From the NCBI GenBank assembly GCA_050178035.1, contig JBFXGK010000019.1, positions 54 to 64,053 on the forward strand: DNA of 64,000 nucleotides, in the 5' to 3' direction. Source of the stretch: Kiritimatiellia bacterium. GTDB lineage: Bacteria > Verrucomicrobiota > Kiritimatiellia > JAKQHR01. This document shows, one piece after another, positions 5,273 to 51,767 of the stretch. The translations under genes were made by a program, and so were the position numbers. Position 1 is the stretch's first letter. Each line of letters opens with the position of its first letter. A model generated the notes under the pieces. The model saw nothing but the letters and a program-made list of their open reading frames with translations. It was not told the origin of the DNA and ran no database searches.

Positions 5273-5791
5273 ATGAAAATGAAAGCGCTGGCGGAGGCGG
5301 TGGACCGGTCGGTTCCGTTTGTAATGAACGTGCAGAAGAAGTTCGGTCTGCAAACGCTGCTGCATTATTCCGACGGCTATGCGGCGCTGATGAAGAAGCT
5401 GGTCTGGCTCTCCCTCTCTCCCGTTCCCCAGAAAGATATCGAACTGCTGCTGAACCGCGAACGGAAGCTTCTCGAGGTGCTGAAGGTGGATTCGGTGTCG
5501 CACGAAAGCGACTGGTTCGAGCGCATGTGCGTCATGAAATCGGGCCCGTCCCGCCTGCTGCTGAGCGGCTATGACCTGAAGTGCCGCATTGACGGGGATG
5601 CCGTGCAGCCGGGGCTTGATTTTGCCGAGCGCGCCCGCGAACTTTTCGAGGATCAGGAAATGGGCGCAGACGCCCTGACGGCATTGAAAAACTACGCCGC
5701 GATTTTCAAAAGAGTCCGGGACCAGCTGGCGCAGGACATTCCCGCCATGGCCGCATCGCTGCGTTGGGCAAAGAGAATTGCGACCCCATGA
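5273..5791 (+). CDS. Hypothetical protein with possible N-terminal HTH
   Basis: Coding-like GC3 bias. N-terminal LAEAVDRSVPFVMNVQKKFGL resembles a helix-turn-helix. No family recognised. Confidence 0.45.
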   Translation: MKMKALAEAVDRSVPFVMNVQKKFGLQTLLHYSDGYAALMKKLVWLSLSPVPQKDIELLLNRERKLLEVLKVDSVSHESDWFERMCVMKSGPSRLLLSGYDLKCRIDGDAVQPGLDFAERARELFEDQEMGADALTALKNYAAIFKRVRDQLAQDIPAMAASLRWAKRIATP

Positions 5792-5809
5792 TGTTTTCCC
5801 GGGCGGGGT

Positions 5810-35214: not shown

Positions 35215-36383
35215 GCAACTCCCAGAAATTCTTTGAGGATTTCCCGCCAGCGCCGCTCAAAGGCCTCCGGGCTGAACTTCTCAAGTGCAACCTCATGGGT
35301 CCTGCGGCTGTGGTCCTCATGCCAAGCCGGAGGCCGGCCTGCAAAATCAACAACCGTCTTTTCAATCGTCGAAATTGAACAGTCCTCCAAAGTTATGCCA
35401 AAGTCTTCAGTATCAATGCCGCATTCACGACTGATGATGGGAATTAGGCCGGCGCACATGCACAAAGTGACCGCGCCCGGCTGCCCCTCCCCGCTTGAAG
35501 GCATCAGCACGGCCCCGCACACGCCTATCAGTTCGTCAAACAATTTGCCGCCAACATCAACCCAGCCATGTAAATGGATGTTATTTGTCCTGAAGAGTTC
35601 AACCGCATAACATTCGCAGAAATCTTTTTCCCGTTTCAGCGGCGAACAAATGTGGAGTTCATATTCAGGATGCCTTGCAAATATTTCGAGGAGCAGATCC
35701 AGCCCCCTTCGAACGGAGCGCGACGAAGCCAGATACATAAATACTCGCCGCGCGTGTTTAAAATCTCGCTGTGTATTTCTGGTTTCTTCATAACCAGAAT
35801 TATTGAATGGTATTACGCTAGAATTATAGGGTTTATAACCCGATGCGGTAAAACTATTGCCAAAGCATGCAATCATTGAATAGTTGGCCAGGTCATTCGA
35901 AAATACTTCTGCAAAGTCATGTTTCTCAAGCTGGCACTTACGGCGTTCTTCCAGATCCTCATAGCGCTCCTCCAAATTGCGGTTGCCTAGTACCGCCTCC
36001 ATCCCAACGGTGATTCCGAGCTTGGGAACATTAGACGGGAGCAATTTGGCAATACGGATGCCGTTTTGTCCGGTGCCGATAAATGCATCGTAGTGCCGGT
36101 CGGGAACAAACCGGGAATCGGACCAGTCCACGACATCAATGATATATCCCAACTCATCGAGTATCCGCGCAATTTGAAGGTTCTGGCCCCAATTCTGATG
36201 AGCCCGGAACAACGCCCTGTTCTCAGGATCCGCCATAAACGGGCCCGCCAGATACTCGAACAGAAGCCGTTTCTTATAAACCCCTTCTTTACTAAAAACA
36301 TCCCGCAAAACCGGATATCCGGCGTATTTGCGATAAACCAGCCTGAACCGGTTCACTGCCTTATCCATAAAAGTATTCATCAT
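35211..36383 (-). CDS. Hypothetical protein with GT-B-like C-terminal half (putative glycosyltransferase)
   Basis: C-terminal SSGEGQPGAV...AGLIPI resembles the group-1 GT E..G motif. The N-terminal half is unrecognised. Confidence 0.45.
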   Translation of the reverse strand: MMNTFMDKAVNRFRLVYRKYAGYPVLRDVFSKEGVYKKRLLFEYLAGPFMADPENRALFRAHQNWGQNLQIARILDELGYIIDVVDWSDSRFVPDRHYDAFIGTGQNGIRIAKLLPSNVPKLGITVGMEAVLGNRNLEERYEDLEERRKCQLEKHDFAEVFSNDLANYSMIACFGNSFTASGYKPYNSSVIPFNNSGYEETRNTQRDFKHARRVFMYLASSRSVRRGLDLLLEIFARHPEYELHICSPLKREKDFCECYAVELFRTNNIHLHGWVDVGGKLFDELIGVCGAVLMPSSGEGQPGAVTLCMCAGLIPIISRECGIDTEDFGITLEDCSISTIEKTVVDFAGRPPAWHEDHSRRTHEVALEKFSPEAFERRWREILKEFLGVA

Positions 36384-37921
36384 TGCGGAATCAATTTAAA
36401 TCTCTGGCAGGCGGCGCTGACGGCCCAGGCCACAGCCACACCGGCGGCGCTGATCAGGACAGCAGCGGGGGCAAGGGTGAACCAGCTGGTCAGCGCAAGT
36501 TCAAAGAAGAGCTGGAATACATAGGCCACGAAGAAAGGAACTGTCACAGGCAGGAAATAGGTGAACTGCCCCAAAATACTGGAAACATTAAATAGTTTTC
36601 GATCCACATAAACGCGGATGAAAAGCATGAAGGGTATGGTCAGCAGCCAGCAGAGAGCTGCGCCGACGATGCCCATCCTCGGGATCAAAATGAACATGCC
36701 CGAGATAATCACTGGAATGTTAAGATAAGCCATGATGGTCTGAACCTTCACCAACCCCGCGCCCAGCAGAAAGTTGTGGTTGATAATCCCCATCGGGGCC
36801 AGAGCATAGCGGATGCACACAATCTGCAGGACCACAGCCGCCTGCAGAGCGAATTCCGGCCCCATCCAGAGCGTCAGAAACTGGCGGCCGCACAGAAACA
36901 GCGGCAAAATAAAACCCACGGAGATCACGATGATCAGCAGTGTGGATTTCACATAGAGACGGCGCAGGCGTGCATAATCCTTCTGTTCAAACAGACTTGC
37001 GGAAAACGGAAAAAGAAACGCGCTGGCCCGGGCCAGCACTGCATGCACCTGTCGCGCCAACTGCAAGGCCACCGTGTAGTAGGCCACCGCCGAAGGGCCG
37101 ATGTATGATGCAATCAGAAAACGGTCCACATTTGAATTTACAATATTCAGCAGCGACTCCAGCCAGCGGTAGACCCCGAAACCTGTGATTTCCCTAAGCG
37201 AATGCCAGTCCGCGCGGGGAACGGGTGAGAGACCGGATATCAGCACTGCGCGCGCGGTCAGGAATTTTGCAATCCCCCCGAGAAAAAGAATAATCACTGT
37301 CGCCGCTACGACCGCGCGCAATCCATATCCGGCGAGCACTAGCACAATATTCACAAGGATTGTCGCGGCTTGGGTGATGATGGTCACACGTGCGGCCAGG
37401 TCGTAGCGCTCATAGCCGTAAAAAGCGGACTCAAACACGCTGTCGAAAAATCGCGCCAGCAGGCCCAGCGATCCTATTTGAATGGCGGTGGTGGCCAGCG
37501 GGACATCGGCGGGCTCCAGCCTGAATACCCGCCCGCAGAGAAAAGGGGCCAAGAAGACTATAATCACGGCGCCCAGCAGCCCCAGCATGCAGTACATGGC
37601 CAGCGTGGTGGCCATCGTGCGCCTGACCCCCTCGCTGTCACCGCGCGCGCGATACAGCGACACATACTTGACGGTGGCATCCGTCAGGCCGAATTCCATG
37701 ATGCCCCCAAACCCCAGCACGCTGTTCACCAGCATCCAGATACCGAAATGCTGGATGCCCATCCGCGCCACAAATACCGGCGTTGAAAGGAACCAAAGCA
37801 CCGGATAGACCAGATAGGCCGTCAGATTTGAACCCGCATTCAGAACGCCGCGCTGGAAATCAGCCGACCGAGTGCGCGGATCCAGACCTTTTAAGAATAT
37901 TTTCAGATTTTCTGTTGCCAT
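36380..37921 (-). CDS. wzx: Wzx-type oligosaccharide flippase (MOP/PST family)
   Basis: 12-14 TM helices. Start chosen at MATENLK (37921) rather than the track start at 38020. Confidence 0.7.
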   Translation of the reverse strand: MATENLKIFLKGLDPRTRSADFQRGVLNAGSNLTAYLVYPVLWFLSTPVFVARMGIQHFGIWMLVNSVLGFGGIMEFGLTDATVKYVSLYRARGDSEGVRRTMATTLAMYCMLGLLGAVIIVFLAPFLCGRVFRLEPADVPLATTAIQIGSLGLLARFFDSVFESAFYGYERYDLAARVTIITQAATILVNIVLVLAGYGLRAVVAATVIILFLGGIAKFLTARAVLISGLSPVPRADWHSLREITGFGVYRWLESLLNIVNSNVDRFLIASYIGPSAVAYYTVALQLARQVHAVLARASAFLFPFSASLFEQKDYARLRRLYVKSTLLIIVISVGFILPLFLCGRQFLTLWMGPEFALQAAVVLQIVCIRYALAPMGIINHNFLLGAGLVKVQTIMAYLNIPVIISGMFILIPRMGIVGAALCWLLTIPFMLFIRVYVDRKLFNVSSILGQFTYFLPVTVPFFVAYVFQLFFELALTSWFTLAPAAVLISAAGVAVAWAVSAACQRFKLIPQ

Positions 37922-38056
37922 GAAATTATTCCAGACACGACGGCATCCTCGCTTTGGGGGTCGAGCTTCCGCCTTCGCCAGGAAGCTCCGGCGTGACACG
38001 CCGTGGAACCTTCCCGACACGGCGTCGCAGGAGATTCGCCCTCCATAGAGGCGGCT

Positions 38057-38951: not shown

Positions 38952-40025
38952 TTATAAAAGGTCCACGACACGTTTCGCGGCATGACCGTCCCAGCCCTCA
39001 ATTCTGGCGGGTTTCGCATTATGGCGCGCGGCGAATTTCTCCCAAACTGTTTCAACAGGGTTCGCTTCAAGATCCAGCAGACTGTTGGTGCCCTCGCAAA
39101 TGGTAACGGGCCGCTCGGTGTTGGGGCGGAGGGTCAGGCACGGGATGCCCAGAAATGAGGTTTCCTCCTGAATGCCTCCGGAATCTGTGACCACGGTTCC
39201 GGCTCCGGCCATGAGTGCAAGAAATTCCACATAACCCATCGGGTCCAGAAGCGTTACGCCGGCCGGACATTCCAACCGGTGTTTCTGAAGCATCGCGCGC
39301 GTGCGCGGATGCACAGGGAAAATCACGGGGCCGGATTCCGCCACCCGGCCCAGCATGGTCATGATGCGCCCCAGCATCGCAGGCTCGTCCACGTTGGACG
39401 GCCGGTGCAGCGTTACCGCAAAATATTCGCGCGGCGTCAGCTCCAGCCGCTCGATGACATCGGACTTCGCTGAGATAGGAAGTATCTGGCAGAGACTGTC
39501 GATCATGACGTTGCCGACAAAATGAAATTTCTCCTGCGGAATGCCTTCCCGGAGCAGGTTTTTGTCCGCATCGCGGCAGCTTGTGAGCAGAATGTCGGAG
39601 ATGGAATCGGTCACAATTCGGTTGATCTCCTCGGGCATGGTGCGGTCAAAGCTACGGAGGCCCGCCTCGATGTGCGCAACGCGAATGCCCATTTTCACCC
39701 CCGTCAGCGCGCCGGCAAGAGTTGAATTCACATCGCCGGGCACAACCAGCAGATCAGGACGCAGCTGCTCCAGCAGCGGCTCAAGGGCGGTCATCACTTT
39801 GGCGGTCTGGACGGCATGACTGCCGGATCCGACCCCGAGGAAGTGATCCGGCGGGGGCATGCCGAAATCGCGAAAGAAAATGTCCGACATGACGGCGTCA
39901 TAATGCTGACCCGTATGAACAACAATCGGATCATATCCGCAGTCACGCGATTTGATTTCCCGCCAGACCGGGAAAATCTTCATGTAATTCGGCCGCACCC
40001 CAGCCAGCAACACAATCTTCTTCAA
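38952..40025 (-). CDS. UDP-N-acetylglucosamine 2-epimerase family protein (second copy)
   Basis: HIEAGLRSFDRTMPEEINR and GDVNSTLAG motifs. Divergent from the 32036 copy, so it could be the hydrolysing/NeuC-like or WbpI-like type. Confidence 0.8.
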   Translation of the reverse strand: MKKIVLLAGVRPNYMKIFPVWREIKSRDCGYDPIVVHTGQHYDAVMSDIFFRDFGMPPPDHFLGVGSGSHAVQTAKVMTALEPLLEQLRPDLLVVPGDVNSTLAGALTGVKMGIRVAHIEAGLRSFDRTMPEEINRIVTDSISDILLTSCRDADKNLLREGIPQEKFHFVGNVMIDSLCQILPISAKSDVIERLELTPREYFAVTLHRPSNVDEPAMLGRIMTMLGRVAESGPVIFPVHPRTRAMLQKHRLECPAGVTLLDPMGYVEFLALMAGAGTVVTDSGGIQEETSFLGIPCLTLRPNTERPVTICEGTNSLLDLEANPVETVWEKFAARHNAKPARIEGWDGHAAKRVVDLL

Positions 40026-40096: not shown

Positions 40097-41038
40097 CTAC
40101 AGAATTTCATGCAGGCGGCAGATTTTTGCGTCGGGGGAGACATAGCGGGCTTCGCACTCCAATGAGGCGCCCGTTTTCTCGCGTACGGCGTCTCGAACTT
40201 TGCGCGTAAGCGCAATGACATCGGCAGAGGTTGCCTCACCGCGATTGACAATAAAATTAGCATGTTTTTCGCTGACCTCCGCATCGCCGATGCGAAGGCC
40301 CTTGAGCCCCGCGTCCTCAATCAGTTTTCCCGGCGGACCGAGATGCTCCAAATGCCGGGGCAGCGCGGCAAAGACGGATCCGCAGGACGGGAATTCAAGC
40401 GGAAATTTATTGGCCCTGAGCTTTAGCGCCTGCCGGGCACGTTCGCGAATCTTTTCGGGGTCTGATCTTTTGCATTCCAGCTCGACGTGCAGAATGACCA
40501 GGAGCCGTTCATGAAATACCGACCGGCGGTAACCGAATTCGCATTCATCATGACTGAGACGGATGACCTGCCCTTTCTCATCCAGCGCCCAGACCTGGCG
40601 GACGCGTTCCCCGATGGTGTAACCGCTGCAGCCCGCATTCATGAAGACCATGCCGCCCAAGGTGCCCGGGATGCCCTCCAGAAATTCAAAACCCGCAAGG
40701 CCTTCGTTTTCGAGGGCGTGCGTCAAATTGGCCGACCGGATACCGGCCTCCGCCAGCACACTGACCCCGTCAATGTTAAGTGATGAAAAATTCCGGCCAA
40801 AGCGGATCAGCGCGCCGCGAATACCCTCGTCATCGAACAGCAGCTTGGCTCCGCCGCCAATGACAGCATATTTCATCTTTTTTGCACGGACATACTGGAT
40901 TGCATTTTGAATCTGCCTGGCATTGCCGGGTTCGATCAGCAAATCGCAGGTTCCCCCGATTTTCCAGGAACAGTGCTGTTTCAACCCCGTATTCTTGCGG
41001 AAATACCCAAGATCCCTTTCATTCAGTTCAATGCGCAT
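40097..41038 (-). CDS. murB: UDP-N-acetylenolpyruvoylglucosamine reductase (UDP-N-acetylmuramate dehydrogenase)
   Basis: FAD-binding PCMH domain (KIGGTCDLL, AVIGGGAKLLF) and C-terminal MurB domain (GSVFANP-like SCGSVFA). Confidence 0.8.
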   Translation of the reverse strand: MRIELNERDLGYFRKNTGLKQHCSWKIGGTCDLLIEPGNARQIQNAIQYVRAKKMKYAVIGGGAKLLFDDEGIRGALIRFGRNFSSLNIDGVSVLAEAGIRSANLTHALENEGLAGFEFLEGIPGTLGGMVFMNAGCSGYTIGERVRQVWALDEKGQVIRLSHDECEFGYRRSVFHERLLVILHVELECKRSDPEKIRERARQALKLRANKFPLEFPSCGSVFAALPRHLEHLGPPGKLIEDAGLKGLRIGDAEVSEKHANFIVNRGEATSADVIALTRKVRDAVREKTGASLECEARYVSPDAKICRLHEIL

Positions 41039-41048
41039 GAAATATTCC

Positions 41049-41549
41049 CTACTTCAGCAGCACGTTCACGATCATTTTTTCCCAAAGCCACTGGGCCCGG
41101 TCGCGGAACTGTTTGAAGCGCTTCAGGCGTTTCTCGAAAAAGGCCCAGTCGGGATCTTTCTTTACACCTGTCTGCCGGTGCGCTGCGACCGCGGCTTCCA
41201 TTTCGCTCATTAGGGCATCAGACGCTTCAATCTTCTGAGCGATGGCATCCAGCAGGGCCTTGCGGAATATTTTTCCAAACTCCTCATTGGCGCGGTAGAA
41301 ATCCTTGCGGTCGCCCTTGACCCACACGCGACTGACGGCGCCCCACTGCTCGAGCTGACGCACGGCCATGCTGGCGCTCCCCTTGCTGATACCGAGATTG
41401 TGCATCAGGTCGGCCAGCGTCTGCGGCTCGCGACAGAAATAGAGGTGGGCAAAAATCTGGCCGATAATGCGGCCGGCGCCAAAGGATTGCGAAAAGTTTC
41501 CGGCAGACTCGACGAAACGCTGACGCAGATCTTTCAGTTCATCAGGCAT
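41049..41549 (-). CDS. GbsR/MarR-type winged-helix transcriptional regulator
   Basis: GRIIGQIFAHLYF...EPQTLADLMHNLGISKGSASMAVRQLEQWGAV matches the GbsR-family HTH. Start set at MPDELK. Confidence 0.6.
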   Translation of the reverse strand: MPDELKDLRQRFVESAGNFSQSFGAGRIIGQIFAHLYFCREPQTLADLMHNLGISKGSASMAVRQLEQWGAVSRVWVKGDRKDFYRANEEFGKIFRKALLDAIAQKIEASDALMSEMEAAVAAHRQTGVKKDPDWAFFEKRLKRFKQFRDRAQWLWEKMIVNVLLK

Positions 41550-41599
41550 GGCAACACCCCACAAGGCAGAAATTTCGGATTAGTGGAACGAAAGGAAAC

Positions 41600-41695
41600 G
41601 CTAAAAGGCTGAAAATAGGCAGTATTTAAGCGCTTTTTATAAGAATTATAACAAAGTTTTGGCCGTTTTTAATGCTTTTTAAGCATCTTTAGCCG
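41600..41695. repeat. Phased T-tract tandem repeat, copy C
   Basis: gcagtatttaagcgctttttataagaattataacaaagttttggccgtttttaatgctttttaagcatcttt. Located immediately upstream of the regulator gene. Confidence 0.5.
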
Positions 41696-41704
41696 GTTGT
41701 CGGG

Positions 41705-41887
41705 CTAAAACAGAGTGTAGATAAACGGAGCCACCGATGATCCGGCGACAATCAAAACGGACAGCAACAGCAGGACTATGACCACGGGGACAATCCACCA
41801 GGCCTTATTGTGCCACGCGAATTCGCCGAATTCTTTTAATAGAAGTCCGAGATATTTCAAAATCTTCATGGAGCAATTTCCCTGCAA
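41705..41887 (-). CDS. Small membrane protein, DUF5989/SxtK-like, carbamoyltransferase-associated
   Basis: 60 aa with a single C-terminal TM helix (WWIVPVVIVLLLLSVLIVAG). Sits 4 nt downstream of the carbamoyltransferase, as SxtK-like genes do. Confidence 0.5.
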   Translation of the reverse strand: MQGNCSMKILKYLGLLLKEFGEFAWHNKAWWIVPVVIVLLLLSVLIVAGSSVAPFIYTLF

Positions 41888-41890
41888 CGG

Positions 41891-43720
41891 TTAATCCAAT
41901 ACAAAGTCCGTCCGCCAGCTGGCGCTGTCCTGGAAGGGCGGCTGATGTTTTTTATCCAAAATGTAGGAACCCAGAACGAGATAGTCCATTTCGGTTCGCA
42001 TGAAACAGCGGTAGGCATCTTCAGGCGTGCAGACGATGGGTTCACCGCGAACATTGAAAGAAGTGTTGATAACAATACCATAGCCGGTGAGATCATCAAA
42101 GGCCTTGATAATAGCATGGTATCGCGGACTGGTCTCGCGGTTCACGGTCTGTACGCGGGCGGAATAATCCACATGCGTAATGGCCGGGATGTCAGAGCGC
42201 ACCTGGTTGATGCGCTCGCGAACGGAAAGCTTTTCGCTTTCATCCAGCCCAAGGCAGCGATCCTTGCGGACCCGGGCAACCAAAAGCATATAGGGCGACG
42301 GGCGGTCCAGTTCAAAGTAATCAGATGCTTTTTCCTCGAGGCACGACGGCGCAAAGGGCCGGAAGGACTCGCGGTACTTGATCTTCAAATTCATAATGGA
42401 CTGCATTTTGGGAGAACGAGCATCGCCAATGATAGAGCGCCCGCCAAGGGCGCGCGGGCCAAACTCCATACGGCCCTGGCATAGGCCTATGACATTTTCC
42501 TCCGCAATCAGCCGGGCTATAGTGCGGGCCCAGTCGGCTTCAGTCGGTCTCGTCGCGGGATATCCCTTTACCTGGAGGAACTCGCCAACTTCCTCATCGG
42601 AGAATTCGGGACCAAGATAAGCACCATTCATCTGATCATGCTTATTGTCAGCCGAACGGGGATTCCCCTTCACCTGATGCCAGACCAGGAGAGCACACCC
42701 GAGGGCTCCGCCGGCATCTCCCGCGGCGGGCTGTATCCAGATATCCTCAAACGGGCCTTCCCGCAAAAGGCGGCCATTGGCCACACAGTTGAGCGCAACG
42801 CCGCCGGCCATACAAAGATATTTTTCGCCGGTTATTTTGTGAACATGCCGGGCCATCCGCAAAACAATTTCCTCCGCGACCACCTGAATGGAGGCGGCGA
42901 TGTCCATTTCGCGCTCAGTGAGGTCCGATTCGGACTTGCGCGGCGGTCCGCCAAATAGTTCATCAAAACGGTTGTTGGTCATCGTCAAGCCGTCGAGATA
43001 GCCAAAATAATCGAGATTCAGCCGAAACGATCCATCCTCGCGCAAATCAAGAAGCTTATCCCTGATGAGATCAGCAAACACGGGTTTCCCGTAAGGGGCA
43101 AGGCCCATGAGTTTGTATTCTCCGGAATTGACTTTGAAGCCGGTAAAGTAGGTGAAAGCGGAATAAAGCAAACCAAGGGAGTGAGGAAAACGCAGTTCGC
43201 TGAAGATTTCCACTTGATTTCCCCTGCCGCGACCAATGGTGCTGGTCGCCCATTCGCCCACGCCATCAATCGTCAGGATAGCTGCGCTTTCATAGGGCGA
43301 GGGATAAAAGGCGCTGCCGGCATGCGACTCGTGGTGCTCCGGAAAGAACATTTCCGGCGGCATTTTGATGCCGGCCTGCTCCAGCGAGGCCTCAATCTCC
43401 GGTGGAATCCACAGTTTCTGTTTAAGCCAAAGGGGCAGGGCCATCATGAAGGAATTCAAACCTTTGGGGGCAACCCCGATGTAGGTCTCAAGAATGCGGG
43501 CAAACTTGTTGATGGGCTTGTCATAAAATGCAACCGCATCAAGCTGTCCCGACTGGATGCCACCCTCGGCAAGGCAATAGCGGACAGCATTAACCGGGAA
43601 GTTGGAATCATGTTTCTTGCGTGTAAAGCGCTCCTCCTGCGCGGCAGCTATAATCTGCCCGTCGCGCACAAGTGCGGCAGCCGAGTCGTGATAAAAAGCG
43701 CTGATCCCAAGAATATTCAT
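41891..43720 (-). CDS. Carbamoyltransferase (NodU/CmcH/SxtI family)
   Basis: N-terminal MNILGISAFYHDSAAALV, metal site EHHESHAGSAF and C-terminal YrdC-like half. Start at the TAATG overlap, not the track start at 43888. Confidence 0.85.
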   Translation of the reverse strand: MNILGISAFYHDSAAALVRDGQIIAAAQEERFTRKKHDSNFPVNAVRYCLAEGGIQSGQLDAVAFYDKPINKFARILETYIGVAPKGLNSFMMALPLWLKQKLWIPPEIEASLEQAGIKMPPEMFFPEHHESHAGSAFYPSPYESAAILTIDGVGEWATSTIGRGRGNQVEIFSELRFPHSLGLLYSAFTYFTGFKVNSGEYKLMGLAPYGKPVFADLIRDKLLDLREDGSFRLNLDYFGYLDGLTMTNNRFDELFGGPPRKSESDLTEREMDIAASIQVVAEEIVLRMARHVHKITGEKYLCMAGGVALNCVANGRLLREGPFEDIWIQPAAGDAGGALGCALLVWHQVKGNPRSADNKHDQMNGAYLGPEFSDEEVGEFLQVKGYPATRPTEADWARTIARLIAEENVIGLCQGRMEFGPRALGGRSIIGDARSPKMQSIMNLKIKYRESFRPFAPSCLEEKASDYFELDRPSPYMLLVARVRKDRCLGLDESEKLSVRERINQVRSDIPAITHVDYSARVQTVNRETSPRYHAIIKAFDDLTGYGIVINTSFNVRGEPIVCTPEDAYRCFMRTEMDYLVLGSYILDKKHQPPFQDSASWRTDFVLD

Positions 43721-44196
43721 TAGAACTGTTTCCTGTATCGCGAAACGTCCCCAACCGGCTTGCGAGATGTCCAATAGGTGGGTTCGGCCGTATGAATCTG
43801 GCGATGAAGAGGGTCCTTCCCTTTTAGTTTCAGCGCCAGATGCATAGGGAAGAAGCACAGATAGTAGAATGGCGTCAGTAGCACCCATGTAAGGACTTCA
43901 CCCACCCGTTGCCCCAGCCGCTTTCCAAAGCGTTCAATGGCGGAAAATACCGGTGGAATGAATAATCCCGACACCAGCACAACTCCGGAAAAACTCCAAA
44001 CAACAAACCCCATAGTCCTATGACCCAGCCGCCAGAAAAGAAAAGCGCCAATAACCGCCATAACCGCGGTTTGAATTACAGCTGCTTTTTTTGAATTTTG
44101 CCCTTTTGAGGCGTCAGCTTTTTTCGCTGCGCCTTCCCGCCAGGGCCAAACCACTGATGAAACCGTATTACTCATAGAACTGCTGTATCGATCCAA
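43720..44196 (-). CDS. SxtJ-like small membrane protein (putative)
   Basis: 158 aa with 3-4 TM helices. Overlaps the carbamoyltransferase start. Confidence 0.45.
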   Translation of the reverse strand: MDRYSSSMSNTVSSVVWPWREGAAKKADASKGQNSKKAAVIQTAVMAVIGAFLFWRLGHRTMGFVVWSFSGVVLVSGLFIPPVFSAIERFGKRLGQRVGEVLTWVLLTPFYYLCFFPMHLALKLKGKDPLHRQIHTAEPTYWTSRKPVGDVSRYRKQF

Positions 44197-44420
44197 TAAA
44201 CCTGCTCACTGAAGTTACGGCGGGTGTCTCTACAACAAAATGCCGGGCAATGAAAGGAAAAATCCGCAAGGTCAGCCGGCGGAGCCCCCACCCGGTTGAA
44301 TTCACTGCCGCTTTATTATTCGGCTTGCCCTGCTGGGTTTAATCGTTAAGCTTGCCAACCGGTTTGTGTCAGGTGAATTAGACACGAAATACAAGCGATC
44401 AGGAAAGCCGGAGCACAAAT

Positions 44421-45569
44421 ATGAAACCCAAGAAAACAAAGCAGACGCGGATTGCACGAAAAATCGGCCTGCTTGCTGCCAGCACACTGATCTCCTGTTT
44501 GCTGCTGGAGTTCGCCGTGCGGATATTTCTCGGCGACCGCATCGTTTTATTCCCGAGATTTCATGCCCGGGCCGAGTACGGGCCATACACCATCAGACGT
44601 TTGCGGCCAGACACCACTTTCCGTCATCGCAGCCGGGACGGATCCTGGAAATTCACTATCAACTCGCAGGGTTTCCGTTCAGCCGCGGATTTTCAGTATG
44701 AAAAACCGGAGGGAAATTTAAGGGTGATCTGCCTCGGTGATTCGCAAACCCAGGGCTTCGAGTGCCGTCAGGACAAAACATTTTCCGCAGTCATTCAGCG
44801 CTATCTCTCCAAACGCGGGGAAAATGCGGAAGTCATCAATGCCGGGGTCTCCGGATTCAGCACCGCCGAAGCTCTCGCCTTTCTGGAAAATGAAGGCATC
44901 CGGTACAACCCCGATGCCGTTGTGCTCGGTTTCTTTGCCAATGACATGGATGACAACATCAAAGCCGATCTTTTCAGATTAACCGAAGAGGGTCTGGCGA
45001 ACCATCGCTTCGAGCACATTCCCGCCGTCGGCATACTGGATGTGGTTGACCGTTGCCCGCCGCTGCGCTGGCTCTCTCAGAATTCGTATGCCTACTCCCA
45101 CTTGTTCAATACCGTATGGGAGTACAAAAAGAGCCTGCTGTTGAAAGAGGCTGAATACGCCGCCGCGACGGAGTTTGCGGCTGCCCAGAAAGACGAAGAT
45201 GCCCGCCTGACTGGGAAGAAACAACAGCTGACGGAAGCCCTGCTGGAACGCATGCATTCATTCTGCGAAAGCAACAATGTTGTCCTTGTTGTGCTGGATA
45301 TTCCTCAGCCGGGCAAGGAAGATCAGGACTTCCTGCCGTCCATTCCCGAAAAAATGGTGCAGTCTTTCAAGGAGCATTCGGATGCGCTTATTCTGAGTCC
45401 GGAAATCCTTGGAGATTATGACGGGCTGCTGGATTTTTTCGTGCCGCACGGCCAGCGCCATATTTCCGAAGCAACTCACATGCTGCTTGGAGCAGCGGCG
45501 GCAAAATCCATTCTGGAACAGTTGGAGGGCAGAAAATCATTGGAAATCGCTCCTGCCGTGGATTATTGA
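44421..45569 (+). CDS. SGNH/GDSL hydrolase-family protein (putative polysaccharide O-acyl esterase/transferase)
   Basis: N-terminal TM anchor. Block I VICLGDSQTQG carries the catalytic Ser. Gly (NAGVSG) and Asn blocks are present. Confidence 0.7.
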   Translation: MKPKKTKQTRIARKIGLLAASTLISCLLLEFAVRIFLGDRIVLFPRFHARAEYGPYTIRRLRPDTTFRHRSRDGSWKFTINSQGFRSAADFQYEKPEGNLRVICLGDSQTQGFECRQDKTFSAVIQRYLSKRGENAEVINAGVSGFSTAEALAFLENEGIRYNPDAVVLGFFANDMDDNIKADLFRLTEEGLANHRFEHIPAVGILDVVDRCPPLRWLSQNSYAYSHLFNTVWEYKKSLLLKEAEYAAATEFAAAQKDEDARLTGKKQQLTEALLERMHSFCESNNVVLVVLDIPQPGKEDQDFLPSIPEKMVQSFKEHSDALILSPEILGDYDGLLDFFVPHGQRHISEATHMLLGAAAAKSILEQLEGRKSLEIAPAVDY

Positions 45570-45589
45570 AGCACAAGTGCGGAAAAACC

Positions 45590-45690
45590 TGATAATTTTG
45601 TTCATTTTCCACGATTTCTGCTGTTTTTAGGCCGTTTTTGAGCATTTTTGGCTGTTTTTGAACGTTTTTTGCTTTTTTTAGGATATTCTA
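45590..45690. repeat. Phased T-tract tandem repeat, copy D
   Basis: ttcattttccacgatttctgctgtttttaggccgtttttgagcatttttggctgtttttgaacgttttttgcttttttta. Shares tttttgagcatttttgg with copy A. Confidence 0.55.
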
Positions 45691-45926
45691 CGTGTTTGGG
45701 GGCGCGTTTATCCACCAACCCGGAGGCAGACTTCGTCCCGGTGAAATCCCGGCGGGACGGGATTGCACGGACCGCAATCTAATTTCCGGACGTCACGCAT
45801 ACGCATAACGTTCAATACGCATTGAACATATCATACGACACGGCAGACGCAAGAACAATGCGCCAAAATCTTTTTTCTTGGGGGAGGCGGCTCCGGTCTG
45901 ATAGTCTCATAAACAGTGTTCTGACC

Positions 45927-46748
45927 ATGAATACCTTTTTCGAACTGGTGATCGCAGAACTCCTGTCGCAAGGCGTTCTTCGGCGCGACAGCCGCATCCT
46001 GGTGATGTGCGGCGGCGAAACCGACCACGCTGTGCTGATGAAGCTCGGCTTCACAAATGTTGTGATCAGCAATGTGGACGAGCGGAGAGACCGGAATGAC
46101 ACCGCCCAATACGCCCCGTTTGAGTGGAGCTACCAAAATGCCGAATCCATGACGTTCGAAGACCGCAGCTTCGAGTTTGTGATCGAGCACTCGGGCCTGC
46201 ACCACCTGCCCTGTCCACAGCGCGGCATTGCGGAAATGTACCGCGTGGCGTCAAAAGGAATCATCGGATTCGAGGCAAACCGCAATCTTTTCACCACCCT
46301 CGGCGTAAAACTTGGATTCGGACAGGAATATGAGACGGCGGCGGTTTTCTACAACGATCTCAAATACGGCGGCATTTCCAACAGCGCCATCCCCAATTAT
46401 GTCTACCGCTTCACCGCAGGCGATATCCGGCGAACCGTCTCAACGCTGAATCCCGCTGCACGGCACCGTTATCGGTTCTGGCACGCCACGCAAATCCCGG
46501 CGGCTGCGCAAAATATTAAAAATCCTCTGGTCCGCTTCGGATTGCGGACATTCGGAAGCCTGCTGAAGCTGGCGGGAAGATCTTGTCCGTTTCTCGCGAA
46601 CAACATGGCCTTCTTTGCGGCCAAACCCGCCATTCCGGATGATCTGCATCCATGGCTGAAGTTGGAAAACGGGAACATCGTTCCCAACCGGGAATTCCTG
46701 GAGAGAAAGTACCGGCCGGGCCGGGTTAACGGCCCAGCGCCTCTTTAA
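45927..46748 (+). CDS. Class I methyltransferase-like protein
   Basis: ILVMCGGETDHAVLMKLGF...FEFVIEHSGLHHL resembles the SAM-MT motif I/II layout. Start chosen at MNTFFEL. Alternative start at 45822. Confidence 0.5.
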   Translation: MNTFFELVIAELLSQGVLRRDSRILVMCGGETDHAVLMKLGFTNVVISNVDERRDRNDTAQYAPFEWSYQNAESMTFEDRSFEFVIEHSGLHHLPCPQRGIAEMYRVASKGIIGFEANRNLFTTLGVKLGFGQEYETAAVFYNDLKYGGISNSAIPNYVYRFTAGDIRRTVSTLNPAARHRYRFWHATQIPAAAQNIKNPLVRFGLRTFGSLLKLAGRSCPFLANNMAFFAAKPAIPDDLHPWLKLENGNIVPNREFLERKYRPGRVNGPAPL

Positions 46749-48612
46749 GAAGCTGAATGTTCAGCATGACCATTGTCGGAGGCTCCGGCAGACGGGCCGC
46801 CCGCTCAAATACTTCCAGAGCCTCTTCGTGTCGGCCGTTCAGTCGCAGAGCCAAACCCAGCTGAGTGATGTAGAATGAATCCTTCGGATAATCGTTCACG
46901 ATCTGTCGAAGAAGTTCGATGGCCCTGTCGTTTTCGCCAAGGGCCGAATGCACCTTGCTCTTGCCGTAGACAACTTCCAGCGCGTACGGATTGCGCTTGA
47001 GCGCCTCGTCATAGCTTTCCAGCGCCAGTCGGCTGTTTTCCTTTTTAGCCTCCGCATCGAGGCTCCAGAATCCGCGTGTCTTGTGAATGTGCCCCATACC
47101 CTTCCACGGTTCCCAGAATCCGGGATCAATTTTGACAGCCTTCTGAAAATACTGCAGAGCCTTCTCGTCTTTCAGTTCGCCGCGGGCCTTTTCCCCGAGT
47201 CGGAAAAGAACGTCCGACGCCAGCGCCTGCGCCGACAGGAGCAGAAGGATTACAGCGCACAGCGCGCCGCACAGGGAAAACGCCCGGGCAGATATCCGGC
47301 GGGGCTGAAAAGCTCCCGCGGCGTACAGCTCGGCCGAAACCAGCCCCCCCAGCAGAATCAGGATGTGGCTGTTGGCAGAGATGTGGAAGTTGAAATCGAA
47401 AACAGCATGCGCAAGACTGGCCGCGGACGCCCCCAGAAACCCCGCCGTGAGAAATTCCGCATGCCCATGCAAATCCCTCTTCAAGTAAATGAAAAGCAGA
47501 CGTCCGAGACCCCAGAAAACAAAGACCGCAAACAGCACCAGGCCCACCGCGCCATATTCCGCAAGGATCTGAACATACTCGTTATGAGCATACATCACCC
47601 ACGACTGGTAAGTATGCGACCTGTATTTCGGCTCCACCCAGCGGTAGGTGCCCGGCCCGCAGCCGAAAATGGGGTTATCCTTCACGATCCCCATGGCGTC
47701 GGACCACAGCTGTGTGCGGACATCTCCCGTTCGGGCGTATTCGATCCGGTTTCTCACGACCGGAACGGTTGTCCAGAGAACGAAGCCAAGACCAGCGACC
47801 AGCAGCGGCAGGCCAATAAAACTCACATAGAATAATTTTCTGTTCCGCTTCCAGAGAACAAGCCAGAGCGTCGCCACAAAACCGACCGCCCCCCCGATCC
47901 AACCCGAACGAGACTGGGTCAGCACCAGCACCGGCGCAATCAGGGCCAGCGTATATCCAGAGAAGATGCGCAGCATTCCGCCCGCGCCCGGCGAGAAAAG
48001 AAAAGCCAGGCAGATGCACATAACAATCTCCAGCAGATTGGCAAAATGATTGGGGCACATATAGGTGCCGCTGGCGCGCATGCCATACGTTTCCGGCCGC
48101 ACGAGGTTCAGAACCATGCGCGAGCCGCGCACGTGCAATACGAGCGCATACCAGAGGATGAGTGAAACAACAACGACGAGAAGGCCGGTGATCCATTTCC
48201 AGCGGTTTCCGCGGTGGCCCATGTTCGTCCACGCCAGCAGGATCAGCACGGCGTTTGCCAGCATCACAAAATGAAAGCGGGTGATGTGGCTGATTTCAGA
48301 ACCCGGAATCCTGAACGCCACATAGGCCAGCAGAGCCAGTCCCGCAAAGAAACCGGGCGGGATGCGGATCTCGCGCAGATCCGGCGCAAACAGCGGCCGG
48401 AGAAAAAACAGCAGAAGGCCGGCCAAGGAAAACATCATCAGCAGCGCAATAGACCAGGTTCTGACGCCGCCATACAGGAACAGGCCCGCCCATGCAGGCG
48501 CCAGAAGGAATATCAGGGTGATTCCGTCATAAAAACCACGACGCAAGGACACCGGGGCAACCTGACTGCGGCGGCGGCGGCGGGATCCCTGATGGTCTTC
48601 AGGCGGTTGCAT
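46726..48612 (-). CDS. O-antigen ligase-family membrane protein fused to C-terminal TPR domain (PEP-CTERM-system-type O-glycosyl ligase candidate)
   Basis: About 12 TM helices with a Wzy_C/O-antigen-ligase loop (LTQSRSGWIGG). C-terminal ~150 aa carry 3-4 TPR repeats. Confidence 0.65.
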   Translation of the reverse strand: MQPPEDHQGSRRRRRSQVAPVSLRRGFYDGITLIFLLAPAWAGLFLYGGVRTWSIALLMMFSLAGLLLFFLRPLFAPDLREIRIPPGFFAGLALLAYVAFRIPGSEISHITRFHFVMLANAVLILLAWTNMGHRGNRWKWITGLLVVVVSLILWYALVLHVRGSRMVLNLVRPETYGMRASGTYMCPNHFANLLEIVMCICLAFLFSPGAGGMLRIFSGYTLALIAPVLVLTQSRSGWIGGAVGFVATLWLVLWKRNRKLFYVSFIGLPLLVAGLGFVLWTTVPVVRNRIEYARTGDVRTQLWSDAMGIVKDNPIFGCGPGTYRWVEPKYRSHTYQSWVMYAHNEYVQILAEYGAVGLVLFAVFVFWGLGRLLFIYLKRDLHGHAEFLTAGFLGASAASLAHAVFDFNFHISANSHILILLGGLVSAELYAAGAFQPRRISARAFSLCGALCAVILLLLSAQALASDVLFRLGEKARGELKDEKALQYFQKAVKIDPGFWEPWKGMGHIHKTRGFWSLDAEAKKENSRLALESYDEALKRNPYALEVVYGKSKVHSALGENDRAIELLRQIVNDYPKDSFYITQLGLALRLNGRHEEALEVFERAARLPEPPTMVMLNIQLLKEALGR

Positions 48613-48621
48613 CGGCAGAAA

Positions 48622-49662
48622 CTAGAAGACGCTGCGAGGAACCACAATCACGTCTTCCGCCTCAATGGAGATATCCTTCTCAGGATTCTTCTCGATGTAT
48701 TTCACATCGTAGATGTCCGAATTGTCCCCGCGGATCAGCTTCACCTTCTTGGGCTGGGCAAACTCCGTGTAGCCGCCGGCCGTTGCAATGGCCTGCACAA
48801 GGGTCATGCCGCTAAGCAGCGCGTAACGCCCGGGCAGCCGGACTTCACCCCGAACGTAATAGCTCTGCTGCTGCATCACCACATTGACGCTGATAGTCTT
48901 GTAAATTTCAGCTTTTAGATAAGCGTCGCGGATGGCCCGCTCAAGTTCCGAAGTGGTCTTCCCTGCGGCGAGGACCTCATTGATGTAGGTCAGTGTCACA
49001 TACCCGCCCTCGTCAATCACATCTTGAATTTCCTCTTCGCGCGGGATCCCGCGAAGATAGATCGCGAGCACGTCTCCGGATTTCAGCTGGTAAGGGGATG
49101 TCCTCCCGGTATTGCCATATTCCCGGGACGTTTCGCCACCCGAAGCCGGAGCAGCAGCCGCCGGAATCCGGGGCGGCTCCGGCTGCGGATCAACCTTCAC
49201 AGGAAGCGGAGTGGCCGCAGCGGTCCGTTGAGTATGGGGTCGAATCGGCGAAGACGCAGGGGGCGGGATGGTCTGAGGAGAAGCCACAGGAACCATAGCG
49301 CGCGGCTGTGAGGCCTTCTTCCGAGCGGCCTCGTCGGCGCGCGCCTGTTTTTCCGCCAGTTTCCGGGCTTCTTTTTCGCGGGCCTCGCGCTCCTCCGCAA
49401 GCCGTTTTGCGGCCTTTTCCTGTTCTCTCTTTGTTTGCTGCTCCTGCGCAATACGCGCCTCTTCCTCCCGTTGGAGGCGGGCCTCTTCTTCCCGGATGGT
49501 TCTTTCGTAGGCCTGCTCGTATTCACGAGCCTGCCGGGTGTAGCGGGAGGAATAATCGGGATAAGGATAGCCGGAAGGACGGTTGGACCGGCATCCGGAC
49601 ACCGCGGAAACCATAAACGCGCAAGCAAGAATGATCCAGATTCTCATCTTCATGCTGATCAA
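48622..49662 (-). CDS. wza: Polysaccharide export protein (Wza/EpsA family, SLBB domain) with charged low-complexity N-terminal region
   Basis: Lipoprotein signal (AVSGC). A E/R/K/A-rich ~90-aa segment and a Pro-rich linker precede the Poly_export and SLBB core (YQLKSGDVLAI...PGRYAL). Confidence 0.7.
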   Translation of the reverse strand: MISMKMRIWIILACAFMVSAVSGCRSNRPSGYPYPDYSSRYTRQAREYEQAYERTIREEEARLQREEEARIAQEQQTKREQEKAAKRLAEEREAREKEARKLAEKQARADEAARKKASQPRAMVPVASPQTIPPPASSPIRPHTQRTAAATPLPVKVDPQPEPPRIPAAAAPASGGETSREYGNTGRTSPYQLKSGDVLAIYLRGIPREEEIQDVIDEGGYVTLTYINEVLAAGKTTSELERAIRDAYLKAEIYKTISVNVVMQQQSYYVRGEVRLPGRYALLSGMTLVQAIATAGGYTEFAQPKKVKLIRGDNSDIYDVKYIEKNPEKDISIEAEDVIVVPRSVF

Positions 49663-51767
49663 GCCTTTCCCTCCGGTTCCACTTTCGCGGCGGCAGGCTC
49701 GGGCTGCGCCTCTTCGCCCGGCGCGTAGTAATGCGAATAGTAGGAATGATAGTAGTAGTAGTAATCATCCCGCATGATGTTGATGTTGTTCAGAACCACA
49801 CCGATCAGTTTCCCGCCGACATTTTCAATGATCTGCTTGGCGCGCGAAGAAATCATCTTGGGGTATTTCCGGTACTGGATCACCAGCAGGACGGCATCCA
49901 TTTCACTGACCAGAATGGAGGCATCGCTCACCCCCATCACCGGCGGAGAGTCGAAGAATACGTAATCGTAGCGGCTCTTCAGGTTCTTGACCAGTTCGCG
50001 CAGGCGCTGGGTGTCGAGCAGGCCCAGCGAAGAACGCGGGAGCTTCCCGCTTGGGAGAAAGTGCAGGTTTGGAACGCTCGTGGCCTTGATGGTTTCCTCA
50101 ATCGGCACATCGCGCATCAGCACATTGGTGAGACCAAACCGGTTGGACATGCCCAGGATTGTGTGCTGCACGGGACGGCGCAGATCGGAGTCCACAATCA
50201 GCACCTTGTCGCCAAGTTGGGCGCAGACAAACGCCAGATTGAACAGTGTTGTGGATTTACCTTCGCCGACCCCGCCGCTCACCATCGCATAGGCGCCGCC
50301 GGGAACTTTCGCCGCAAACTGCATATTGGTTCGCAGCACGCGATAGGCCTCTGCATGGGGACTGTCCGGCCCCTCCTCGATCAGCGGGCGCACTTTCTGA
50401 GGGATCACGCCCAGAACAGGCAGACCCATGGACCGCTCCACGTCGTCCACGGTCTTGACCGACGTGTCGAGGTACTCGATGAAATAGGCCAGGCCGAGTG
50501 CGGCACCCAATCCCACGAAGAGGCTCAGCAGGATGTTCATGAACACATTCGGGCTTGCCGCCCGGAGAGGAGGCTCCGCCGGATCCACAACCTCAACGGC
50601 CGTGCGCGGAACCTCAAGAGAAATGCCTTCCTGGGCTATACGCGCCTGCAGCGCCTCAAGAATGGAGCGCTGCACATCCAGCTCCCTCTGCGCTTTTTCA
50701 AACGGAAGGAATTTATCGCGCGACGACTCGATGTCCTCTACGCGAGCCTCACCAAGCGCCATTTCCAGGGCCTCGTATTTCTCGCGGGCGACGGCATAGT
50801 CGGCCTCAAGACCCTTCTTCAAACCCGCCAGAGCGTTTTTCAGCTGCTGCTTGAGCTCATCGCGACCGGCCACCAGACGCTTCACTTCCGGGTGGTTGGC
50901 TCCGTAAGTTTCCAGAGCTAGCTTGAGATTCACCTCCGTGTTCACCAGATCGGAACGGATGCGTGAAAGCGCGGGATCATTGACAATATAGGCCGATGCA
51001 TTCAGAAGATCCTCCCCCTCGAGATTGATCAGCTGTTCGTACCGGGCCTTGCGCACCACGCGATCCACATTGGCCGCAAGACGGTCGGCCTCAAGCTGCG
51101 AGAGGCGAATCTTGTCAACGCTCACGCCCCGGTCGATCACCGAAACGCCCAGTTCCTCACGTATGGTTTCGACACGGTTTTCAACCTCATCCACCTTGTC
51201 CTGCTGCTTTTTCATTTCGTTCTGCAGCGCATCGATGGCCGATTTGATTTCACGGCGCTTGGCCTGAAGGCGGTGATCGCGGTAGACATTGGCCACCTCG
51301 TTGGCAATGCGTGCGGACTCCTGCGCATCTGTGCTGTAGACGGAAATTTCGATGAGGCTGGTGTCGCGCGCCTGCGCCACGCTAATAGAACCGTTCAGAA
51401 CCTCGTAAGTCTCCTCCCGGGAGAGGGCTCGCTCTCCATCGGTAAAGCGCTTGCCCCAGATTTCCTCCAGGTTCAGGTTTCTGATCACCTCGTTAAGGAT
51501 GGGTTTGGATCGGATGATTTCGTACTGCGTGCGCAGGAAAAAGGGGTTATAGGCGGAATTGAGCTGGCGCTCGAAGACATCAATGTCCGTAGCATCCTGC
51601 CGCACCAGAATGCGGGCAGTGGCGGCATATTTCTTCGGCAGCATGAACGTTACTCCGGTGCCGGTGAGCACCACCAGAAGAGTCACTGCGAGGATGACTT
51701 CCTTGCGGGAGCGGATGACCCGCCAGTAGTCCAGAAAATGCAGTTGGGCTTCGTTCGACTGTTCCAT
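49659..51767 (-). CDS. wzc: Polysaccharide co-polymerase / BY-kinase (fused Wzc-type chain-length determinant and tyrosine autokinase)
   Basis: N-terminal Wzz TM anchor and a long coiled-coil periplasmic domain. Second TM. Walker A VSGGVGEGKST and A' VLIVDSDLRRP. C-terminal Tyr cluster YYYYYHSYYSHYY. Confidence 0.8.
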   Translation of the reverse strand: MEQSNEAQLHFLDYWRVIRSRKEVILAVTLLVVLTGTGVTFMLPKKYAATARILVRQDATDIDVFERQLNSAYNPFFLRTQYEIIRSKPILNEVIRNLNLEEIWGKRFTDGERALSREETYEVLNGSISVAQARDTSLIEISVYSTDAQESARIANEVANVYRDHRLQAKRREIKSAIDALQNEMKKQQDKVDEVENRVETIREELGVSVIDRGVSVDKIRLSQLEADRLAANVDRVVRKARYEQLINLEGEDLLNASAYIVNDPALSRIRSDLVNTEVNLKLALETYGANHPEVKRLVAGRDELKQQLKNALAGLKKGLEADYAVAREKYEALEMALGEARVEDIESSRDKFLPFEKAQRELDVQRSILEALQARIAQEGISLEVPRTAVEVVDPAEPPLRAASPNVFMNILLSLFVGLGAALGLAYFIEYLDTSVKTVDDVERSMGLPVLGVIPQKVRPLIEEGPDSPHAEAYRVLRTNMQFAAKVPGGAYAMVSGGVGEGKSTTLFNLAFVCAQLGDKVLIVDSDLRRPVQHTILGMSNRFGLTNVLMRDVPIEETIKATSVPNLHFLPSGKLPRSSLGLLDTQRLRELVKNLKSRYDYVFFDSPPVMGVSDASILVSEMDAVLLVIQYRKYPKMISSRAKQIIENVGGKLIGVVLNNINIMRDDYYYYYHSYYSHYYAPGEEAQPEPAAAKVEPEGKA

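Follow-up and report, generated by a model that had tools for sequence, protein, structure and literature searches.

The DNA analysed here, called the window, is a stretch of 64,000 nucleotides (nt) from the genome of an uncultured Kiritimatiellia bacterium (assembly GCA_050178035.1, contig JBFXGK010000019.1, positions 54 to 64,053 of the forward strand). Its segment 41,705 to 44,196 carries the gene of an O-carbamoyltransferase (CT) between the genes of two small membrane proteins, one resembling SxtJ and the other belonging to DUF5989, and a membrane-anchored SGNH/GDSL hydrolase is encoded divergently beside them. The three open reading frames (ORFs) of the segment lie head to tail on the minus strand, where the first-pass annotation of this DNA had placed them, and the surrounding window is an exopolysaccharide (EPS) locus. 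Table 1 gives the coordinates.

The stop codon of the SxtJ-like gene overlaps the ATG of the CT gene by 1 nt (TAATG). The sizes and spacing first given for the two small genes need correction. The SxtJ-like protein, read as 158 amino acids (aa) from TTG 44196, most likely starts at ATG 44175, because most of its 104 close homologues are 151 aa long. Likewise the DUF5989 protein, read as 60 aa from TTG 41887, most likely starts at ATG 41869, because most of the homologues listed for it have 54 aa; a 54-aa gene is also called in a related locus (L065; such numbers denote the loci compared here). The gap between the CT and DUF5989 genes is therefore 21 nt rather than 3. The 245-bp divergent region presumably holds the promoters of the SxtJ-like and SGNH genes; the promoter scan called no promoter-like site in it, and positions 40900-46000 gave no Rfam match, that is, no riboswitch or leader.

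Table 1. Coordinates of the carbamoyltransferase genes and of other features in the window
Feature	Position	Strand	Remarks
SxtJ-like membrane protein	43720..44175	-	151 aa; extension to TTG 44196 would give 158 aa
O-carbamoyltransferase (CT), class III NodU/CmcH/TobZ-type	41891..43720	-	609 aa; by Pfam
DUF5989 single-pass membrane protein (SxtK-sized)	41705..41869	-	54 aa; extension to TTG 41887 possible
SGNH/GDSL hydrolase, membrane-anchored	44421..45569	+	382 aa; divergent from SxtJ-like gene
Divergent intergenic region between SxtJ-like and SGNH genes	44176..44420	.	245 bp; read from the sequence
GbsR/MarR-like winged-helix regulator	41049..41564	-	171 aa; a neighbour, not a conserved cassette part
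MurB paralogue (FAD_binding_4 + MurB_C)	40097-41038	-	
UDP-GlcNAc 2-epimerase adjoining the MurB paralogue	38952-40025	-	
Flippase	36380-38020		
Wzy_C protein, first	29359-30870	-	
Wzy_C protein, second	46726-48612	-	fused to a C-terminal TPR-repeat block
Wza-like protein	48622-49662		
Wzc-like protein	49659-51767		

The assignment of the central gene to the NodU/CmcH family, already made at first pass, is confirmed by both Pfam domains, Carbam_trans_N (3.3e-100, 336.3 bits against a gathering cut-off of 24) and Carbam_trans_C (6.9e-73, 244.2 bits against 27), and the enzyme has a Kae1-like N-domain followed by a YrdC-like C-domain. Its best relatives among the structures in the PDB are GdmN (1.5e-91), NovN and TobZ. 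In GdmN, H27 is the catalytic base and H133, H137, D156 and D333 are the iron ligands (PMC9633730); in the alignment these residues pair with H11 and with H129, H133, D152 and D335 of the CT, respectively. Because the catalytic base and all the iron ligands are retained, the CT is very probably active. By homology, the YrdC-like domain would convert carbamoyl phosphate and ATP to carbamoyl-AMP, from which the Kae1-like domain would transfer the carbamoyl group to a hydroxyl of the acceptor. The clade to which this CT belongs ends in a conserved short tail (…SWRTDFVLD or …NWREDYVLD; seen at 41891-41950 in the window and in the CT of L054), which lies past the region aligned with GdmN and could be a docking motif.

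The SxtJ-like protein begins with a WPW motif and ends in a basic tail (GKDPLxR...TYW...RYRKQF). In the alignment of its family (A1), residues W10, W97, L100, P102, F103, D121, W135 and Q150 are invariant; the first ~40 residues, with the invariant W10 and a nearly invariant W12, are peculiar to the subfamily found in the window. The claimed relationship to SxtJ holds at the level of profiles and fails in direct scoring. At default thresholds the ORF matches nothing in Pfam or NCBIfam, its direct score against the Pfam family SxtJ (PF19588) is 16.1 bits (E 0.019), under the 24.4-bit gathering threshold, and only 5 of 33 family members match SxtJ even at E<=10. The family profile, compared by hhalign, matches both P0105, a JGI protein that carries PF19588 (97.2%, E 4.6e-11), and WP_068422840.1 of Planctomyces sp. 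SH-PL62, named 'SxtJ family membrane protein' by PGAP (97.8%, E 9.2e-13). The core common to the window and Planctomyces proteins consists of the third helix and the C-terminal tail (GKDPLHRQIHTAEPTYWTSRKPVGDVSRYRKQF in the window, GRDPLERGRRPAVATYWAPKATPTDPRRYFKQF in Planctomyces); their C-terminal motif TYW...RY.KQF is nearly identical, and the profile homology to SxtJ covers the tail GxDPLxR...W...Y(K/R)(Q/M)(F/Y). Since the profile-profile match holds where direct Pfam scoring fails, the protein is regarded, on homology, as a divergent member of the SxtJ superfamily that falls outside the Pfam family as now delimited. The family is large: a library of 1.84 billion proteins yields 7374 clusters (50% identity) at E<=1e-3 and 242 at E<=1e-30.

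The upstream protein had been described as having multiple transmembrane (TM) segments, which stands with the reservation that just two of them are strongly hydrophobic. The AlphaFold2 (AF2) model (pLDDT 78) has helices at 28-48, 53-72 and 74-118, the third being a single helix of 45 residues, followed by a tail of low confidence and no regular structure. Only the first two helices exceed the TM hydropathy threshold; the third is weaker and has the character of a long amphipathic or interfacial helix. Across the family, the number of lysines plus arginines (K+R) is 4.3 in the N-terminus, 0.8 in the first loop, 2.6 in the segment after helix 2 and 7.1 in the tail. Because this distribution, the hydropathy and the AF2 model fit together, the most likely topology is a hairpin of two TM helices with its two ends on the cytoplasmic side, followed by an interfacial helix 3 and the basic tail. 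A Foldseek search of the model against the PDB returned nothing below E=2.

The small protein encoded downstream had been called DUF5989/SxtK-like. Its membership in DUF5989 is clear (PF19451, 6.4e-17, 61.8 bits against a gathering cut-off of 27); it has 169 homologues, and among those listed most are 54 aa long and all carry PF19451. A basic amphipathic N-terminal segment is followed by one TM helix and the conserved C-terminus APFIYTLF. The protein is 54% identical to a PGAP 'DUF5989 family protein' that adjoins an SxtJ family protein and a CT (L076). The gene sxtK has 165 bp, or 54 codons (PMC2679770), and it is by this length and by co-occurrence with Pfam-SxtJ proteins alone that the DUF5989 protein is likened to SxtK. 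Two adjacent DUF5989 paralogues, P0284 and P0296 (HQ523_03990 and HQ523_03995), occur on one 37.5-kb Lentisphaerae contig. A literature search found no functional study of DUF5989 or SxtJ, and SxtJ and SxtK are uncharacterised in publications up to a preprint of June 2026, in agreement with what had been said of these small membrane partners at first pass.

The product of the divergent gene matches Pfam Lipase_GDSL_2 (2.8e-10), and in its family alignment G106, S108, N140, G142 and H347 are invariant and D107 and N174 nearly so. The AF2 model (pLDDT 89) consists of an N-terminal TM helix (7-37) and an SGNH core. Because six basic residues precede the helix, the catalytic domain should face outward on a one-helix anchor. 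Foldseek retrieves generic SGNH esterases, among them carbohydrate acetyl-esterases and PatB, and a weak match to crocagin CgnD (12% identity); the fold does not discriminate between esterase and transferase, or between acyl and carbamoyl chemistry. The Leptospira SGNH families LA_2486/LA_2490, suggested by NCBIfam, were dropped as their scores are far under the cut-offs. In the homologue from Sinorhizobium meliloti, a weak AlgX-domain match was seen.

The arrangement of these genes is conserved well beyond the window. A genome scan seeded with the SxtJ-like profile alone gave 64 loci, mostly from metagenome-assembled genomes (MAGs) of Kiritimatiellia, Verrucomicrobiota and Lentisphaerae, the remainder coming from Desulfobulbaceae, a Planctomicrobium MAG, Thermoanaerobaculia and the isolate Desulfosediminicola flagellatus. 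The small ORFs had been expected to be kept beside the CT in relatives, and they are: a CT gene follows immediately 3' of the SxtJ-like gene in 63 of the 64 loci, and hidden Markov model (HMM) searches find a small DUF5989 ORF in 36, usually straight after the CT. The 1-nt overlap of stop and start is identical in 37 of 61 scorable loci, and most others have a gap of at most 10 nt. In 55 loci, where the match covers nearly the whole protein, the CTs are 63-88% identical to that of the window; the median identities are 74% for the CT, 70% for DUF5989 and 39% for the SxtJ-like protein. With 7374 clusters in the family and synteny in 63 of 64 loci, the pairing of the SxtJ-like family with the CT is not due to chance.

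The SGNH gene is the only gene of the window besides the trio that recurs near it, being found in 17 loci by tblastn and in 23 by HMM. It stands directly after DUF5989 in L022, L030, L033, L034, L062 and L064, and divergently upstream, as in the window, in L003, L004 and L029; SGNH proteins of ~50% identity are encoded directly 5' of a CT-SxtJ-DUF5989 array in L077, from a Lamellibrachia symbiont genome, and in L078. Gene order varies, being SxtJ-DUF5989-CT in L070 and CT-SxtJ-DUF5989 in L076. pSymB of S. meliloti 1021 (L075, NC_003078.1 482,210-486,412) has the full quartet, with a divergent SGNH gene (482,210-483,538) followed by SxtJ (483,931-484,383), DUF5989 (484,387-484,563) and a CT of 59% identity (484,580-486,412); its flanks are a two-component system and an Opp-type ABC transporter, with no EPS genes, and the record is unannotated in PLSDB. 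As CT, DUF5989 and SGNH genes recur with the SxtJ-like gene across loci, the conserved unit is a four-part cassette, with SxtJ-CT as the core and DUF5989 and SGNH as frequent accessories, and by gene content it has the same kinds of parts as the saxitoxin genes sxtI-J-K-L. The SGNH hydrolase is a recurrent fourth member, corresponding in position to sxtL after sxtK. It had first been taken, together with the carbamoyl group, as the mark of a separate acyl decoration; it recurs as a member of the cassette instead, and no sign that it marks such a separate decoration was found.

Two loci depart from the common pattern. L059 (1-3816; Lentisphaerae JAFGTH010000074.1) is the only one lacking a CT after the SxtJ-like gene, which is followed there by ~400 bp of repetitive sequence, a 375-aa ORF resembling, by eye, a DegT/DnrJ-type aminotransferase, and a GbsR-like regulator 50% identical to that of the window. 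L054 (3889-8281; Kiritimatiellae FR_21) has the SxtJ-CT pair without DUF5989 or SGNH, adjoining a tRNA-Ser(tga) gene (5701-5792) and a 644-aa ORF that by eye resembles a large serine recombinase; this site may be an integration hot spot.

The partners accompany a particular kind of CT. Among plasmid records the identity to the window CT is bimodal, 54-62% in one group (Gemmatirosa, planctomycetes, Sinorhizobium/Ensifer and the Ralstonia solanacearum megaplasmid) and at most 40% in the other (natural-product CTs, NodU and CTs from lipopolysaccharide (LPS)-core clusters). Partners are present beside the inspected CTs of the first group, and no SxtJ, DUF5989 or SGNH partner stands beside the three inspected CTs of the second. 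In these neighbourhoods the association is thus restricted to one CT clade with at least 54% identity to the window enzyme. In R. solanacearum (L080, CP049788.1 48239-51425) the gene of a CT of 54% identity precedes those of a 68-aa TM protein and, next, an SGNH hydrolase. HMM scoring assigns the TM protein to neither DUF5989 nor SxtJ, but it resembles the last SxtJ helix plus a 'DP..RRR' tail; the flanking genes, for ATP-grasp, proline dehydrogenase, MFS and redox enzymes, have the appearance of a small-molecule cluster.

Taken together, these observations favour the reading that the region encodes a membrane-associated O-carbamoyltransferase cassette or complex of the SxtI/SxtJ/SxtK(/SxtL) type, to which we assign a probability of roughly 0.55. 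The SxtJ-like protein, translationally coupled to the CT, and the DUF5989 protein, with a cytoplasmic amphipathic N-terminus and one TM helix, would be small subunits of the inner membrane, holding the soluble CT docked and oriented at its cytoplasmic face, with the basic tail of the SxtJ-like protein free for partner binding. This model is proposed because the translational coupling is conserved and because of the topology of the two small proteins. The docked CT would act on a membrane-bound, lipid-linked acceptor or hand its product to export, and the SGNH protein would probably trim an ester or carbamate from the same product outside. The likeliest acceptor in this genome would be a lipid-linked sugar of the polysaccharide made by the surrounding Wzx/Wzy locus, which is the weakest step of this reading and which we rate at somewhat less than an even chance; an O-carbamoylated EPS is plausible for this genome. 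A transmembrane 'carbamoyl relay', analogous to AlgI/AlgJ/AlgX or PatA/PatB, was also considered and judged unlikely on reasoning, since the membrane parts fall far short of MBOAT or AT3 proteins in size and a carbamate makes a poor acyl donor. No functional study of EPS carbamoyltransferases with small partners, or of the S. meliloti genes, was found in the literature.

The EPS setting proposed at first pass is evident in the window, which is a Wzx/Wzy-type polysaccharide locus. Besides the Wza-like, Wzc-like, flippase and two Wzy_C genes, it encodes GT2 and GT4 glycosyltransferases, a pyruvyl transferase, methyltransferases and a BBP2-type porin. A MurB paralogue lies beside a UDP-GlcNAc 2-epimerase in the polysaccharide operon, and the EPS may contain a lactyl-ether (muramic-acid-like) sugar. 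The cassette stands first in a series of polysaccharide genes that share its direction, in which a 140-nt gap separates DUF5989 from the gene of the GbsR-like regulator; a scan for terminators between the two genes found none that was convincing. The regulator matches NCBIfam CudC (7.3e-17, well under the cut-off) and, weakly, Pfam HTH_IclR and MarR. It had been counted as part of a regulated module, a role rejected here, as a homologue occurs near the cassette in only 1 of the 64 loci (L059).

Several points weigh against a membrane complex dedicated to this polysaccharide. The gap after DUF5989 contains a strong sigma-70-like promoter-like site (TTAAAA-16-TATAAT, TG-preceded, 41645-41672 on the minus strand, 10 of 12 matches), which parts the trio from the downstream EPS genes, and these may have a promoter of their own. 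A homologue of any glycan gene of the window lies within 6 kb in only 7 of the 64 loci, and in L071, L073, L075 and L078 the neighbours are housekeeping or unrelated genes with no glycan genes nearby. The CT is unusually conserved (median identity 74%, as opposed to 39% in the SxtJ-like protein), which agrees better with a shared acceptor than with EPS sugars, which vary. As to the complex, the physical interaction of the CT with the small proteins is a prediction only; the structures of TobZ, GdmN and NovN were determined on the proteins by themselves, and no partner is needed for the in vitro activity of GdmN. Should helix 3 of the SxtJ-like protein span the membrane, as it could, the tail would lie outside, away from the CT. 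Finally, no DUF5989 is detectable by HMM in ~16 loci with room for it after the CT (L054, for example), and it is therefore dispensable or encoded elsewhere in those loci.

Some of the same observations lend themselves to a different explanation, that the cassette is a self-contained, horizontally portable unit whose position in an EPS locus is incidental and whose acceptor, be it a common envelope glycolipid, a lipid-linked precursor or a small metabolite, is independent of the neighbours. With the exception of SGNH, even the closest relatives do not share the flanks, and copies stand alone among AddAB/PhoH genes (L071), POR/AMP-binding genes (L073), tRNA synthetase/LptE genes (L078) and the two-component and Opp genes of pSymB. 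The median CT identity of 74% extends over several phyla, and the tRNA-Ser gene and putative serine recombinase beside the L054 pair agree with mobility of this kind. Against this explanation, the cassette of the window stands at the head of the polysaccharide run, and in about half of the neighbourhoods annotated by Pfam or PGAP a glycan gene directly adjoins the cassette (L066, L068, L072, L074, L076 and L077 have glycan genes immediately beside it), which looks above chance placement by impression rather than by statistics. An incidental position is on balance unlikely, though far from negligible.

It is improbable that the SGNH protein is an independent O-acetyl esterase or transferase of the EPS, recurring only through a shared polysaccharide context. 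Such a role would suit the occurrence of the same family in an EPS locus of Acidobacteria that lacks CT, SxtJ and DUF5989 (L079), the fold matches to carbohydrate acetyl-esterases and PatB and the weak AlgX-domain match in S. meliloti, but the gene is the sole non-trio gene of the window that recurs by the cassette, it directly adjoins cassettes that lack other glycan genes (L075 and L078), and a GDSL lipase gene directly follows sxtK in the sxt cluster as well. Least credible is the notion that the small membrane proteins have to do with the export or regulation of a diffusible, carbamoylated small molecule or with self-protection against it, with the SGNH protein as an extracellular decarbamoylase as proposed for SxtL: the saxitoxin alkaloid cluster has the same parts (sxtI-J-K-L, ABI75099-ABI75102), SxtJ and SxtK are listed, on a loose assumption, as 'regulatory' in saxitoxin schemes, and the R. 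solanacearum CT lies with a small TM protein and an SGNH hydrolase in a small-molecule-like setting, but a transporter would be expected to be larger than proteins of 151 and 54 aa that have three and one hydrophobic helices, Foldseek gave no transporter fold match, and no small-molecule biosynthetic genes were found beside the cassette in the window.

Beyond the membrane-associated cassette itself, a broader view can be put forward tentatively, and we consider it doubtful at present: the SGNH hydrolase, SxtJ, the SxtI-type CT and DUF5989 would form one ancient, portable four-gene machine, which would add carbamoyl groups at the cytoplasmic face to acceptors that are membrane-bound or exported and edit these outside the cell, with the mini-proteins obligatory and sxtIJKL a co-opted copy. 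If that were true, the tractable carriers S. meliloti 1021 and R. solanacearum could reveal the roles of SxtJ and SxtK, which have been marked 'unknown' in saxitoxin pathway schemes since 2008. The present comparison sharpens the question of why one CT clade travels with two mini membrane proteins to a coupled SxtJ-CT core, DUF5989 and SGNH accessories, a single CT clade and culturable model carriers. For the uncultured Kiritimatiellia genome itself, the prediction is a carbamoyl substituent on an envelope glycan.

One of the closest parallels among known systems is the cyanobacterial saxitoxin cluster, where sxtI (1839 bp), sxtJ (405 bp), sxtK (165 bp) and the GDSL-lipase gene sxtL have, in C. 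raciborskii T3, the consecutive accessions ABI75099-ABI75102 and are all thought to serve one carbamoylation step (PMC2679770, PMC2684587, PMC2885083). It has been put forward as a hypothesis that SxtI, SxtJ and SxtK work jointly (PMC2679770; also a 2026 preprint), and the decarbamoylase role of SxtL is only a proposal (PMC2679770). An O-carbamoyltransferase of ~610 aa, a membrane protein of ~134 aa, a 54-codon ORF and a GDSL lipase are encoded there, and the window has all four kinds. The two differ in gene order, J-I-K with SGNH divergent upstream in the window and I-J-K-L in the saxitoxin cluster, and in the SxtJ protein, which in the window belongs to a divergent subfamily under the Pfam threshold and has an additional N-terminal WPW segment. 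They also differ in setting, a polysaccharide locus in Kiritimatiellia as opposed to an alkaloid cluster, and are likened by the types of their parts, their lengths and gene position.

A second parallel is provided by plasmid pPL62-1 of Planctomyces sp. SH-PL62 (VT85_RS25675-25665), where PGAP names a trio 'carbamoyltransferase / SxtJ family membrane protein / DUF5989 family protein'. Its CT and DUF5989 proteins are 61% and 54% identical to those of the window, its SxtJ gives the profile match of 97.8%, and its surroundings are likewise of EPS type, including exosortase, EpsI and a sugar O-acetyltransferase. Unlike the window, this trio has the order I-J-K, an SxtJ of canonical length (138 aa) and no adjoining SGNH gene. 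The stand-alone enzymes TobZ, GdmN and NovN share the two-domain build, the metal ligands and the catalytic histidine with the window CT, and GdmN is an active soluble homodimer with its own C-terminal dimerisation domain (PMC9633730). Together with NodU, NolO and WapO/PA5005, these enzymes are only 27-40% identical to the window CT, and SxtJ, DUF5989 and SGNH neighbours are absent from the three loci examined. NodU carbamoylates Nod-factor sugars, and WapO, of the same enzyme class as the window CT, carbamoylates LPS-core sugars. Trios of the present kind have already been named by PGAP, and the saxitoxin literature has remarked on them from 2008-2010 onwards; what the Kiritimatiellia locus adds to them is the divergent SxtJ subfamily and the J-I-K order.

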